Shown here one piece after another: positions 23,011 to 44,555 of a DNA stretch of 64,000 bases (positions are counted from its first letter, which is position 1; every line of letters starts with the position of its first letter). Source of the stretch: Schmidtea polychroa (lineage: Eukaryota); contig CM097885.1 of assembly GCA_044892525.1 (NCBI GenBank), positions 4,094,001-4,158,000 on the forward strand, written 5' to 3'. The translations under genes and the position numbers were made by a program. The notes under the pieces are model-generated. The model searched no databases. It saw nothing but the letters and a program-made list of their open reading frames with translations, and had not been told where the DNA came from.

Positions 23011-24220
23011 AGTAGATGGATTGGGCACCGCTGGCACAGGGCACCGCTAGCACAGTACCCCCCCTCCCCCTCCCCCCGTCGGTAAGATTTTCAAAAATAT
23101 TCTAAGTCTAAAAGTACATTTTTTTTTCAAGGTCAAATTTAAACAAAGACATATGACTCATCAAGGTCATTGAAACAAAGACCATGAGTCATATCATGAC
23201 TCATCAAATTTTTCAAGGTCATTTAAACAAAGACCATGACTCATCCGATGACTCATCAAGGTCATTTTCAAGGTCATATGACTCATAATAAGACTCATCA
23301 AGGCCAAAAATTTTTCTCGAGGTCATTTAAACAAAGACCATGACTCATCAAGGTCATTTTCAAGGGCATATGACTCATAGTATGACTCATATGACCTTGA
23401 AAAATTTTTCTCGAGGTCATATGACTCATAATATGACTCATCAAGGTCATTGTAACAAAGACCATGACTCATCAAGGTCATTTTCAAGGTCATATGACTC
23501 ATAGTATGACTCATATGACCTTGAAAAATTTTTCAAGGCCATATGACTCATCCTATGACTCATCAAGGTCATTCTCAAGGTCATATGACTCATCCGATGA
23601 CTCATCAAAATTTTCAAGGTCATTTTCAAGGTCATCTGAGTCATCCTATGACTCATCAAGGTCATTTTCAAGGTCATATGACTCATAATATGACTCGTTA
23701 AGGTAATTTTCAAGGTCATATGACTCATAGCATGACTCATATGACCTTGAAAAATTTTTTCAAGGTCATATGCCTCATAATATGACTCATCAAGGTCATT
23801 CTCAAGGTCATATGACTCATCCGATGACTCATCAAAATTTCCAAGGTCATCTGAGTCATCCTATGACTCATCAAGGTCATTTTCAAGGTCACGTGACTCA
23901 TCCAAGGTCATATGAGTCATCGCGATGACTCATCAAGGTCATATTATTATTTTTAAAAATATTATTATTTTTATTATTATTTTTAAAAATATTATTATTT
24001 TATTTTTAATTTTTTCAAAGTTCCCGCCAACGAAAATTAATAATCGATAGCTCATTTTAAAGCTCAATCCAAGACCTTTCGAAAGAGCCATATATCTTAT
24101 TATTATTCGAATGAGCCATATATCTTATTATTATTATTATTATTATTATTAATATTATTATTATTATTATTATTATTATTATTATTAATATTAATATTAT
24201 TAATATTATTATTATTATTA
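23011..24220 (+). repeat. Left terminal inverted repeat of the Maverick (inner boundary approximate)
   Basis: AGTAGATGGATTGGGCACCGCTGGCACAGGGCACCGCTAGCA... is the reverse complement of the right end; internal TGACTCA/TCAAGGTCA array; ends in (ATT)n. Confidence 0.95.
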
Positions 24221-24231
24221 TTTCATTGATA

Positions 24232-24660
24232 TAACTGCATGCCCACTGCAGACTATATAAAACATATAGCTGCATGCCCACTGCAGACTATATAAAAAAC
24301 ATATAGCTGCATGCCCACTGCAGACTATATAAAACATATAGCTGCATGCCCACTGCAGACTATATAAAAAACATATAGCTGCATGCCCACTGCAGACTAT
24401 ATAAAAAACATATAGCTGCATGCCCACTGCAGACTATATAAAAAACATATAGCTGCATGCCCACTGCAGACTATATAAAAAACATATAGCTGCATGCCCA
24501 CTGCAGACTATATAAAACATATAGCTGCATGCCCACTGCAGACTATATAAAAACATATAGCTGCATGCCCACTGCAGACTATATAAAAAACATATAGCTG
24601 CATGCCCACTGCAGACTATATAAAAAACATATAGCTGCATGCTCACTGCAGACTATATAT
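24232..24660. repeat. 35-37-bp palindromic minisatellite (ATATAGCTGCATGCCCACTGCAGACTATATAAAAAAC), about 12 copies
   Basis: Direct tandem units; each contains a CTGCA...TGCAG inverted repeat. Confidence 0.95.
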
Positions 24661-24906
24661 AAAAACATATAAAAGTCACCATTAAATACTTGTAAAACAA
24701 ACTTAAAATTATAATAAAACAAACTTAAAAATTCGAAAAATCTGATTACAAATTTTTATTGAATATATACAAATTTTAAATCAATATATACAAATTTTAA
24801 TACAATTTTTATAAATCAAAATAAAAAGTTTTTTTTCAATATATATACAAGTTTTTGTAAATCAAAGGTTTCTGTACAACTTTCAATTGCCCTATTGATC
24901 TTCTTC

Positions 24907-42507: not shown

Positions 42508-42612
42508 TTTTACAATAATTTAAAATATGATGTTTTATTTATACTAATACCGGATGATTTTGATTGGTTGATAGACTATAAATGTAAAAGAAAGGTTTTG
42601 ATTTGATACACC

Positions 42613-43113
42613 ATGAAAACTCTATTCATATTGCTAATTATTATAACGAGTGTGTGCTCACACAATACAACAATAACGGTGGAGTCTTTTAATAAATCAA
42701 TATGTGTTTGTCCGAATACAGCCAAGTTGATGGATATTTTATATATTCTCGATAAACCAAAATGGTCAAAGCATCCAGGAAAAAGAATATCTCAAAGATT
42801 GGAGAATTTAGAAAACAGTTATGAACTAACATTTGAATATATACAAAATATAAAAATTAAATTGATTGATCATATTGAGGTTTTCAATAACTCTATTACT
42901 GAAAATAAAAAGAATATGAAGATTATTGATAAGAAGCATGATTATTTGTTAAAAAAGATTGAATTATTATTAAGAGAAATTCAAACAATCAAAGGATCAA
43001 TAGAATATCTGAAAATCAATTCAACGTTACCAATTTCTAACAATATTGCTGCGAATAGAAGTACATCAATATTTAGTTTACCTTTGTTAATTTTACATTA
43101 TTTTATTGTTTAA
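42613..43113 (+). CDS. Secreted or GPI-anchored coiled-coil glycoprotein, 166 aa
   Basis: Signal peptide MKTLFILLIIITSVCS, several NxS/T sequons, heptad region, hydrophobic C-end IFSLPLLILHYFIV. Confidence 0.75.
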   Translation: MKTLFILLIIITSVCSHNTTITVESFNKSICVCPNTAKLMDILYILDKPKWSKHPGKRISQRLENLENSYELTFEYIQNIKIKLIDHIEVFNNSITENKKNMKIIDKKHDYLLKKIELLLREIQTIKGSIEYLKINSTLPISNNIAANRSTSIFSLPLLILHYFIV

Positions 43114-43239
43114 ATAAATGTATGTTTTGTTGATTTGTTGAGCGTGACCAGTACCCTTGTGAGCATTACCCATAGGGAGACAAAATATTTTGTCGGATAG
43201 ACTCAGAGTATATAGACTCGGTGTATATAGATTAATACT

Positions 43240-44555
43240 AATAATAATAATAATAATAATAATAATAATAATAATAATAATAATAATAATAATAATAATA
43301 ATAATAATAATAATAATAATAATAATAATAATAATAATAATAATAATAATAATAATAATAAGATATATGGCTCATTCGAAAGGTCTTGGATTGAGCTTTA
43401 AAATGAGCTATCGATTATTAATTTTCGTTGGCGGGAACTTTGAAAAAATTAAAAATAAAATAATAATATTTTTAAAAATAATAATAAAAATAATAATATT
43501 TTTAAAAATAATAATATGACCTTGATGAGTCATCGCGATGACTCATATGACCTTGGGAATGACCTTGGATGAGTCATGTGACCTTGAAAATGACCTTGAT
43601 GAGTCATAGGATGACTCAGATGACCTTGGAAATGACCTTGGAAATTTTGATGAGTCATCGGATGAGTCATATGACCTTGAGAATGACCTTGATGAGCCAT
43701 AGGATGAGTCATATGACCTTGAAAAAAATTTCCAAGGTCAAATGAGTCATACTATGAGTCATATGACCTTGAAAATGTCCTTGATGAGTCATATTATGAG
43801 TCATGTGACCTTGAAAATGACCTTGATGAGTCATAGGATGACTCAGATGACCTTGAAAATGACCTTGAAAATTTTGATGAGTCATCGGATGAGTCATATG
43901 ACCTTGAGAATGACCTTGGTGAGTCATAGGATGAGTCATATGACCTTGAAAAAAATTTCCAAGGTCATATGAGTCATCTTATGAGTCATATGGCCTTGGA
44001 AATGACCTTGATGAGTCATAGGATGAGTCATATGACCTTGAAAAAAATTTCCTAGGCCATATGAGTCATACTATGACTCATATGACCTTGAAAATGACCT
44101 TGACGAGTCATGGTCTTTGTTTCAATGACCTTGATGAGTCATATTATGAGTCATATGACCTTGAGGAAAAATTTTTCAAGGTCATATGAGTCATACTATG
44201 AGTCATATGCCCTTGAAAATGACCTTGATGAGTCATGGTCTTTGTTTAAATGACATTGAGAAAATTTTTTTGACCTTGATGAGTCATATTATGAGTCATA
44301 TGACCTTGAAAATGACCTTGATGAGTCATCGGATTAGTCATGGTCTTTGTTTAAATGACCTTGAAAAATTTGATGAGTCATGATATGACTCATGGTCTTT
44401 GTTTCAATGACCTTGATGAGTCATATGTCTTTGTTTAAATTTGACCTTGAAAAAAAATGTACTTTTTTAGAATATTTTTGAAAATCTTACCGACGGGGGG
44501 GAGGGGGGTACTTTGCTAGCGGTGCCCTGTGCCAGCGGTGCCCAATCCATCTACT
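43240..44555 (-). repeat. Right terminal inverted repeat of the Maverick (inner boundary approximate)
   Basis: Reverse complement of the left end; terminates ...GGTGCCCAATCCATCTACT. Confidence 0.95.

Follow-up and report, generated by a model that had tools for sequence, protein, structure and literature searches.

Animal Mavericks, or adintoviruses, carry genes for a family B DNA polymerase of the protein-primed type (PolB), an rve integrase with a chromodomain, an adenain protease, an FtsK/A32-type ATPase, and hexon and penton proteins, and they have inverted ends, accessory Bcl2 homologues and exchange of modules between lineages, as described in parts of two accounts (PMC8502044, PMC11071296). 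In the defining passage of one of them (Buck et al. 2024 preprint, PMC11071296), Adintoviridae have a PolB whose N terminus bears an OTU-like domain, an integrase with a C-terminal chromodomain and a hexon that is reciprocally recognisable by BLASTP with reference adintoviruses. Section 3.2 of the other (Starrett et al. 2021, PMC8502044) reports Bcl2 and IAP homologues and "Oncoid" genes in adintoviruses, and the legend of its Fig. 5 names a TATA-binding-protein (TBP) homologue for viruses with an adintovirus-like PolB; the available part of the text of its Supplementary Fig. S2 contains Bcl2 three times and no TBP, flatworm or planarian words. No conserved Maverick TBP or single-strand-DNA-binding protein (SSB) is described in the literature retrieved on Maverick/Polinton elements with TBP, Bcl-2 or SSB, and passages of a 2026 preprint treat the expansion of Mavericks in planarian genomes only as that of a class of repeats. 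Here we analyse a 64,000-nucleotide stretch of contig CM097885.1 (positions 4,094,001 to 4,158,000; hereafter the window), in which a Maverick/Polinton of 21.5 kb occupies positions 23011-44555. The element shares the features given first for animal Mavericks, its chromodomain, hexon and penton being putative, and beside its core genes it carries a block of six accessory genes: a 145-residue TBP-fold protein (mini-TBP), a Bcl-2 family gene, and genes that we call A2, A3, A4 and A6. We consider it likely that the family is a young Maverick/Polinton made of a virion/integration module plus individually promoted genes, which are under selection and recombine between lineages. The window copy itself is defective. 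The first-pass annotation of the window had proposed a possibly undescribed early region; Bcl2-type accessory genes of adintoviruses had already been published, as had, for a related virus, a homologue of TBP, and the advance here is in detail and breadth.

The termini identify the element. An identical inverted sequence opens both ends exactly at 23011 and 44555, as read directly. The two terminal inverted repeats, about 1.2 kb long and 95.9% identical across 1,248 aligned columns, both begin with AGTAGATGG, which gives the 5'-AG start expected of a Maverick/Polinton, and ATTTAC on either side is the 6-bp target-site duplication expected of one. The core genes follow one another on the minus strand, from right to left, in the order ATPase, basic protein, integrase, penton-type protein, 127-aa protein, capsid, protease and polymerase (Table 1). 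The protease and the ATPase are of the adenain and A32/FtsK types. The polymerase is recognised by PHROG 1907, and polymerase motifs are readable in its translation; no match was obtained with Pfam, or by phmmer against PDB sequences. Its C-terminal part is 48-52% identical over about 860 aa to that of two metagenome relatives, L033 and L040, and conservation of the N-terminal part reaches upstream of the first methionine, with residues 2-97 of the open reading frame 45% identical in a second Maverick family of the same genome. The rve domain of the integrase scores 25.6 bits against a cut-off of 32.6, because an intron splits the domain, and the chromodomain is weak (20.2 bits, under the 25.1 cut-off); the protein as a whole is 53-56% identical to the integrases of relatives.

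The genome searched is a 781-Mb assembly with four very large contigs. Of 3,909 candidates, 40 were scored; at least 36 places other than the window hold the full 3,448-bp accessory block at 98-99% identity, and one more holds it at 92%. The capsid variant of the window recurs at about 100% (rounded) identity at at least 16 other places. The element is one copy of a young, high-copy Maverick/Polinton, that is, of an adintovirus-like integrated DNA virus. The first-pass annotation had described an intron-containing Maverick/Polinton with intact termini, a 6-bp target-site duplication, open capsid, ATPase, protease and integrase genes, and a 3.4-kb block of six further genes, several of them with their own TATA, CCAAT and poly(A) signals. 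All of this is borne out by the present analysis, the introns as predictions that comparison of copies supports. The same annotation called the element complete, which does not hold for the polymerase and A3 genes, as described below.

The accessory block opens with the ATG at 39693 and closes with the stop at 43113. Its first gene encodes mini-TBP, which scores 57.2 bits with the Pfam TBP family (PF00352, cut-off 22.9) over residues 72-134. Nearly all of its 109 homologues are 144-160 aa long. The profile of this family matches TBP structures at E 1.7e-20 through its second half alone; the first half is not recognised by sequence profiles. In the AlphaFold model (pLDDT 94.9), the second repeat is canonical, and the first repeat (residues 1-60) consists of strands and no helices. 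Foldseek aligns the model with TBPs at E 1e-8 and TM 0.71-0.77 over the whole core, and all 44 PDB matches with E up to 0.001 are TBPs, aligned over 164-177 columns. The model thus has the two-lobed saddle of cellular and archaeal TBPs (PDB 1tbp, 1cdw, 2z8u), whereas the protein has 145 residues versus about 180 for the TBP core, and the strand-helix-strands-helix layout expected in both repeats is seen in the second repeat only. On the basis of the predicted structure, mini-TBP is a confident, shortened TBP-fold protein, in accordance with the earlier label "TBP-like". Phenylalanine residues in the stretches ELFP and VFASGK are invariant in the family; we take them to be the counterparts of the DNA-kinking phenylalanines of TBP. 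The identity of mini-TBP to cellular TBPs is no more than 21-26%, which indicates a gene long established in the virus lineage rather than one captured recently from a host. A scan of IMG/VR viral contigs with mini-TBP found none.

A3 belongs to no sequence family. The best structural matches of its model (pLDDT 91.5) are four viral single-strand-DNA binders, CP312R of African swine fever virus (Z 7.3), DUF2815 (Z 7.2), the Enc34 SSB (Z 6.9) and T7 gp2.5 (Z 6.8), and many OB-fold SSB, RPA and PriB chains rank next. CP312R and the T7 gp2.5/Enc34-type SSBs are viral replication proteins and align with A3 over 101-124 residues, but the identity is 4-10%, without sequence similarity, and Z stays under 8. 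In the window, an 8-bp deletion near 41357 replaces a C-terminal motif that is conserved throughout the A3 family; the deleted bases are present in 17 of 17 sister copies, and the natural form of A3 in a sister copy has 136 aa.

The two exons of the Bcl-2 gene are colinear on the Pfam family PF00452: exon 1 covers positions 12-66, and positions 86-100 are covered by exon 2. When the orthologues of sister lineages are read through the intron, they reach 32.6-34.5 bits across positions 6-100, which exceeds the cut-off of 31.4. The genome was scanned with the Pfam model, and many Maverick copies scored over this cut-off; three of them were confirmed as orthologues (68% and 72% amino-acid identity). 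In the PDB, exon 1 matches Bfl-1 best and exon 2 matches Bcl-xL best. The alignments place the stretch KWTRILVGF on BH1 of Bfl-1 and the stretch WIEANGGW on BH2 of Bcl-xL, and a hydrophobic tail can also be read; we refer to the two stretches as BH1- and BH2-type motifs. In a language-model search with exon 1, 18 of the 30 hits are Bcl-2 clusters. The hit at rank 10 (score 0.86), a Preplasmiviricota cluster labelled both Adeno_E1B_19K and Bcl-2, is a lead only. A word-based search with exon 1 returned nothing beyond a 98% identical read-through form. The assignment of this gene to the Bcl-2 family, made at first from the letters of the window, is upheld by the colinear exons and the orthologue scores.

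A2 and A4 have no family matches. In A4, a variable acidic middle separates a conserved N-terminal region from a conserved C-terminal Cys/His cluster. The hydrophobic ends, the five N-x-S/T sites and the cysteines of A6 are all kept in a lineage at 89% nucleotide identity, and A6 is a probable secreted or membrane-anchored glycoprotein, judging from these features. Searches with A6 gave no language-model match and only weak coiled-coil-type Pfam noise. The earlier designation of A6 as a surface protein is plausible from its sequence features, and neither a homologue nor a fold was found that would bear it out.

None of the six frames is interrupted in any of the 10 near copies examined, the A3 deletion being private to the window. 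Seven further copies were chosen that share the capsid variant of the window or one about 96% identical, and the block lies in the same order in all seven, with A2 missed by blastn in two. Between diverged lineages, the ratio of nonsynonymous to synonymous divergence (dN/dS) of the accessory genes is 0.06-0.37 overall: 0.16 for mini-TBP, 0.06-0.09 for A2, 0.18-0.21 for A3, 0.24-0.27 for A4, 0.10 and 0.32-0.37 for Bcl-2 exons 1 and 2, and 0.28 for A6. The ATPase gives 0.08, and the capsid gives 0.10 at a dS of about 1.0 against a sister capsid lineage. Rows marked "short/stop" and the 3' part of the integrase were left out, as they reflect crude orthologue extraction or locus boundaries. The second Maverick family of the genome, whose capsid and polymerase are 80% and 63% identical to those of the window element, carries an intronless Bcl-2-type gene, A3, mini-TBP and a weak A2 match in a different gene order. 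As judged by these ratios, purifying selection maintains all these genes, and the block has not evolved neutrally.

Could the accessory frames be chance frames in AT-rich DNA, with spurious similarities to TBP and Bcl-2? The window is about 70% A+T (about 30% G+C), TATA-like and AATAAA-like strings are common in such DNA, and each Bcl-2 exon of the window is non-significant on its own. On the other hand, the six frames are conserved throughout the 17 copies examined, with the private A3 deletion as the one exception, dN/dS indicates constraint, the evidence for the TBP fold is strong, the Bcl-2 orthologues exceed the Pfam cut-off, and the promoter and poly(A) motifs are enriched relative to shuffles or background. 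The open frames in the copies, the TBP structure match, dN/dS and the Bcl-2 orthologue scores refute this explanation, to which we give hardly any credence.

To what extent the block serves the element or manipulates the host depends on relatives elsewhere. A scan of metagenomes with the mini-TBP family found 59 loci, and 25 of the 59 also contain at least one Maverick core gene by tblastn. Where a mini-TBP locus is long enough to show its context, Maverick core genes stand beside mini-TBP. In particular, two loci of 12.6-12.8 kb contain A3, mini-TBP, ATPase, basic protein, integrase, penton, small protein, capsid, protease and polymerase. A3 stands beside mini-TBP in 20 of the 59 loci. Homologues of mini-TBP and of the capsid are also found on contigs of equal sizes (22,064, 20,066, 16,200 and 13,018 bp). 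A2, A4, Bcl-2 and A6 have no match in the 59 loci. Since mini-TBP and A3 recur in the metagenome loci and the other four genes have no match there, the block is, by this distribution, made of two layers: an old pair, mini-TBP and A3, of a broad Maverick clade, and genes specific to the elements of this host. In this the element differs from the adintoviruses as described in the parts of the literature cited above, since here mini-TBP and A3 are fixed neighbours across a wide clade; in addition, the LXCXE-type motif of "Oncoid" genes was not seen in A2 or A4 by reading.

The first-pass annotation had interpreted the block as a host-manipulation cassette. In its strict form, this explanation takes all six genes as captured from the host for the control of transcription, apoptosis and the cell surface, with mini-TBP competing at host promoters. 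The Bcl-2 homologue fits it, being intron-bearing and of a cellular family; a dominant-negative role is conceivable for a mini-TBP without first-repeat helices; and A2, A4, Bcl-2 and A6 are unmatched in the metagenome relatives, as host-specific genes would be. Against it, mini-TBP and A3 are found 37-58% identical beside core genes in the 59 loci, which come from diverse metagenomes, the low identity of mini-TBP to cellular TBPs marks it as an old virus-lineage gene, the best fold matches of A3 are viral replication proteins, and the accessory genes of the element, with TATA boxes at a fixed distance, offer mini-TBP a target of its own. We therefore regard the strict form as unlikely. Mini-TBP and A3 adjoin Maverick core genes in distant relatives, and it is more probable that they serve the element itself in transcription and replication than that they manipulate the host. 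The cassette is a mixed one.

Copies of the element differ in which modules they combine. The capsid/protease region of the window is 82-84% identical to that of sister copies whose accessory block is 99% identical. Conversely, the capsid gene of the window is 99.5-99.8% identical to that of two copies, L090 and L091, yet against these copies the ATPase shows a dS of 1.2 and Bcl-2 exon 1 is 72% identical. This mosaic pattern of identities indicates that modules are shuffled between lineages by recombination.

The window copy is damaged in two places. A 2,934-bp hAT transposon, flanked by an 8-bp target duplication (GGTAGACC at 27545-27552 and 30487-30494) and with inverted ends of its own, splits the polymerase gene. 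Its transposase contains a Pfam hAT dimerisation domain (25.9 bits), and at least 10 further whole copies lie elsewhere at about 100% identity with different flanks. Five sister copies were fetched for comparison; the hAT insertion is absent from all four that cover the polymerase junction, and the fifth, from C3 (L011-L013), has a rearranged polymerase region and was not counted. Because the polymerase is split by the hAT and A3 is frameshifted at its conserved end, the window copy, as its sequence reads, is structurally whole and not functional, and cannot be autonomous.

A defective copy would also be expected if the element were now only a transposon, whether cut-and-paste or self-replicating, that moves in the germline without particles and whose capsid and accessory genes are relics. 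The element is, moreover, known here from genes alone and not from virions or extrachromosomal DNA. Relics would not, however, show a capsid dN/dS of 0.10 over a dS of about 1 between lineages, and would not have the protease, the small virion protein and every accessory gene under constraint as well. Identical capsid modules paired with very different ATPase/accessory modules need co-replication and recombination of lineages, and near-identical pieces occur in sequencing runs labelled as a second organism. We find the relic explanation improbable, and retain a recombining element with selected virion and accessory genes. As a separate observation, contigs of one run labelled as the second organism carry ATPase-to-accessory pieces with 1 difference in 173-211 letters; the near identity of these pieces may stem from a close sister species or from a transfer across species.

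The two gene sets differ in their signals. Four of the six accessory genes carry TATAWAW in the stretch 20-45 nt ahead of the ATG, with distances of 34-41 nt, against a background of about 0.05 per position, and CCAAT or its complement lies 14-26 nt further upstream in three of these four. No TATA box precedes the five virion-module genes from basic protein to protease, and the frames of the virion module abut or overlap. The poly(A)-type signal AATAAATGTAT occurs four times in the window, after the stops of protease, A2, A3 and A6 and nowhere else; 0.45 occurrences are expected, and none of 100 shuffles reaches four. Such a layout points to early-type genes with promoters of their own beside a single late-type unit. 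In addition, ATGCAAAT, which we take to match the octamer-factor consensus, occurs twice in tandem at 41462-41482, about 50-70 nt upstream of the predicted A4 exon 1.

Short introns are predicted in both sets, and comparison of copies supports them. The protease frame has no usable ATG of its own. An ATG mini-exon directly follows the capsid stop and ends at 34582 with a GTAAG donor; removal of a 37-nt intron (34545-34581) with a TAG acceptor joins it in frame to the main exon (34205-34544). L033 and L040, at about 50% protein identity, have the same ATG mini-exon and GT..AG introns of 37 and 39 nt. In the integrase, a 108-nt (ATT)n run with GT..AG ends (37858-37965) splits the catalytic core, and its removal restores the TDLGKEF motif. 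The run measures 39-189 nt in 10 other copies, always in multiples of three, so that read-through stays in frame and would add a poly-isoleucine stretch. A coding poly-isoleucine run was considered and set aside as less likely in view of the GT..AG ends, the relatives without the run and the range of lengths. The predicted introns of A2, A4 and Bcl-2 measure 49, 41 and 44 nt in the window. From copy to copy, the A2 intron measures either 49 or 42 nt and that of A4 either 41 or 45 nt, with the exons in frame and GT/AG kept; coding sequence would not tolerate such 7- and 4-nt length changes. When 37970-43150 was compared with the contigs of four sequencing runs, the three runs presumed to be RNA had no joints, a result that speaks neither for nor against transcription or splicing.

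These results can be combined into a working model. The ATPase, basic protein, integrase, penton, small protein, capsid and protease genes, head to tail on one strand, would form the virion/integration module and would probably be expressed as one late-type unit with short-intron splicing. The second set would be expressed gene by gene, each gene under its own TATA box, frequently with CCAAT as well, and with a poly(A)-type signal common to the set. From its modelled fold, mini-TBP may bind the TATA boxes of the element and recruit the host RNA polymerase II machinery, a proposal for which we see even chances. We hold the same balance of belief for A3 as the SSB needed for protein-primed replication, given its fold matches. 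That the spliced Bcl-2 homologue delays the death of the cell hosting replication seems to us somewhat better than an even bet from its family membership. A6 would be a glycoprotein that is secreted or sits in a membrane, and regulatory roles would fall to A2 and A4.

Such an arrangement would resemble that of adenoviruses, with early genes alongside late genes. The adenovirus early genes include E1B-19K, a Bcl-2 homologue, the E2A DNA-binding protein and the E3 membrane glycoproteins. Adenoviruses have in common with this element a linear protein-primed DNA, a Bcl-2-type gene, a single-strand-DNA binder, small membrane glycoproteins, own promoters and a late virion unit. They differ in that sequence-level homology is seen here for the protease family only, and early and late timing is read here from promoter layout. 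To our knowledge, adenoviruses encode no TBP and no integrase.

Several points weigh against the model. The Bcl-2 exons of the window, at 17.1 bits for exon 1 and 11.9 bits for exon 2, are under the Pfam cut-off of 31.4, and a profile-free HMMER search of 1.84 billion proteins found a single relative of exon 1, at 64% identity. The dN/dS values amount to two or three independent lineage pairs, since L086 is near L089 and L090 near L091. The Z scores of A3, being under 8, are middling and can reflect a common arrangement, and the best Foldseek E value is 0.08. A2, A4 and A6 are without recognisable relatives outside the genome of the window. The capsid and penton genes have no Pfam, PHROG or PDB sequence match, and the capsid profile has no match against PDB sequences; both genes, of which Mavericks typically have a double jelly-roll capsid and a single jelly-roll penton version, were assigned by position and by a large homologous family, and the family name penton is our assumption from position. 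None of the 167 capsid homologues carries a name, and a cluster look-up of seven proteins gave neither names nor accessions. Every splice site, every promoter and the early/late split were deduced from DNA alone. Finally, the first-repeat helices of cellular TBP carry cofactor-binding surfaces, and a mini-TBP modelled without them might be a decoy or inhibitor rather than an activator.

The viral status of Mavericks in animals is still argued mostly from capsid genes. The present family adds constrained, separately promoted genes for transcription, replication, cell survival and the cell surface, a gene set that would be needed by a virus and not by a transposon. The mini-TBP family, with at least 109 proteins and 59 metagenome contigs, gives a testable handle on Maverick transcription. 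The host is probably a planarian: four large chromosomes, about 30% G+C and introns of 37-49 nt would suit a dugesiid. If the host is a planarian, it is a laboratory model with RNA interference and single-cell tools, and a second class of mobile elements in the same genome also has Bcl-2-type domains. A more far-reaching picture, which we put forward as doubtful, is that a widespread animal Maverick clade consists of self-sufficient nuclear DNA viruses with their own minimal promoter-recognition factor, a 145-aa TBP that has shed the helices of its first repeat and reads the TATA boxes of early-type genes, among them those for an SSB, a Bcl-2 homologue and a surface glycoprotein; about 55 bZIP/AP-1-like and nuclear-receptor-like sites per end would tie replication or transcription to the state of the host cell, and the viruses would be still active, recombining capsid and accessory modules, in a regenerating flatworm.

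Table 1 Positions of the element, its genes and its surroundings in the window.
Feature	Position	Strand	Description
Cytochrome P450 cluster	10045-11544, 21200-22606, 45766-47301, 57393-58961	alternating strands	Pfam E 1e-91 to 1e-99
Left target-site duplication ATTTAC	23005-23010	.	read directly; repeated at 44556-44561
Left terminal inverted repeat	23011-24222	.	opens 5'-AG; dense in ATGA(C/G)TCAT and TCAAGGTCA motifs
37-bp tandem repeat array, 12 copies	24229-24671	.	just inside left end
DNA polymerase (protein-primed B-family), C-terminal part	24907-27552	-	PHROG 1907 E 3.3e-21; severed from 5' part by hAT
Nested hAT transposon	27553-30486	-	2,934 bp; transposase ORF 27747-29516 (589 aa)
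DNA polymerase, N-terminal part	30487-31880	-	first in-frame ATG 31802
Adenain-type cysteine protease	34205-34616	-	Pfam Peptidase_C5 28.9 bits, cut-off 21.3
Major capsid protein, 408 aa	34617-35843	-	open frame 34617-35846; 167 homologues of about 405-420 aa; syntenic in relatives
Small conserved virion-module protein, 127 aa	35840-36223	-	syntenic in relatives; dN/dS 0.21-0.26
Penton-type minor capsid protein	36216-37286	-	28-36% identity to syntenic gene of relatives
Integrase, retrovirus-type, putative C-terminal chromodomain	37232-38353	-	Pfam rve E 1.5e-5, Chromo E 5.6e-4
Basic protein, hydrophobic C-terminus, 177 aa	38415-38948	-	conserved in relatives
A32/FtsK-type genome-packaging ATPase	38967-39593	-	Pfam Pox_A32 30.8 bits, cut-off 22.8; 72-75% identical in relatives
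Mini-TBP, 145 aa, TATA-binding-protein fold (predicted)	39693-40130	+	TATATAA 34 nt before ATG
A2, cysteine-rich protein	40205-40619	+	predicted exon 1 40205-40256, intron 40257-40305, exon 2 40306-40619
A3, candidate OB-fold single-strand-DNA-binding protein	40998-41381	+	predicted fold
A4, acidic protein	41530-41903	+	predicted exon 1 41530-41551, intron 41552-41592
Bcl-2 family gene	41987-42507	-	predicted exon 1 42211-42507 (99 aa), intron 42167-42210 (44 nt), exon 2 41990-42166
Bcl-2 exon 2	41990-42166	-	59 aa, BH2-type motif and hydrophobic tail; stop 41987-41989
A6, 166 aa	42613-43113	+	hydrophobic N- and C-termini, coiled-coil-like middle, 5 N-x-S/T sites
Right terminal inverted repeat	43233-44555	.	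95.9% identity to left arm
Right target-site duplication ATTTAC	44556-44561	.	read directly

Six metagenome relatives were compared for layout (L033, L040, L053, L056, L058 and L064). Mini-TBP is found in two places among relatives, either upstream of the ATPase together with A3 or between protease and polymerase. Relative to the polymerase, the virion module of the relatives is inverted in comparison with the window. In L040, penton-type genes form a tandem pair.

At least three kinds of mobile context carry Bcl-2-type domains in the genome of the window: this Maverick family, the second Maverick family and giant frames (loci L095 and L100/L101 are tied to these contexts). The gene of the second family, intronless and 152 aa long, scores 33.5 bits in several copies. 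Bcl-2 profile matches also lie inside open frames of 1,000-3,090 aa, which fits Burro-type retroelements, and a tandem cluster of seven 68-bit matches occupies 89.9-90.8 Mb of C4. According to a passage of Arkhipova and Yushenova (2019, PMC6431247), which cites Grohme et al. (2018), a BCL-2 motif is present in the giant Burro LTR retroelements of planarians. Burro is thus another class of mobile element with a Bcl-2-type domain, but the domain there, going by that passage, is part of a retroelement polyprotein and here is a separate spliced gene. Between the Burro-type frames and the Maverick Bcl-2 gene, similarity is weak (35% over 48 aa, E 1e-4).

The inverted ends are dense in two motifs. 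The palindrome ATGA(C/G)TCAT occurs about 30 times per end and TCAAGGTCA about 26 times per end, in a unit of about 42 bp; the motif-dense parts are 23120-23945 and 43515-44455. In the whole window, the palindrome occurs 60 times versus about 1 expected and TCAAGGTCA 53 times versus about 0.4 expected, and all occurrences except one are inside the inverted ends. We take these motifs to resemble the AP-1/bZIP and nuclear-receptor half-site consensus sequences. Sites for host factors are also present in adenovirus ends. The 37-bp repeat (12 copies, 24229-24671) and a 74-bp repeat (two copies, 32151-32305), the latter upstream of the polymerase gene, have a common GCTGCATGCCCACTGCAGACTA core. Runs of (ATT)n/(AAT)n lie at 24125-24222, 32088-32412, 33958-34141, 37858-37965, 40681-40806 and 43233-43361.

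In the polymerase part 30487-31802, no match to Pfam OTU was found; a Cys-containing stretch of the N-terminal part looks OTU-like to us. The hAT segment was also considered as a polymerase intron, which was rejected in view of its own inverted ends, its 8-bp duplication and its many identical copies elsewhere. Whole and internally deleted hAT copies at about 100% identity are scattered genome-wide, and the hAT family therefore looks recently active. The Maverick/Polinton itself is inserted between the second and the third of four single-exon cytochrome P450 genes.

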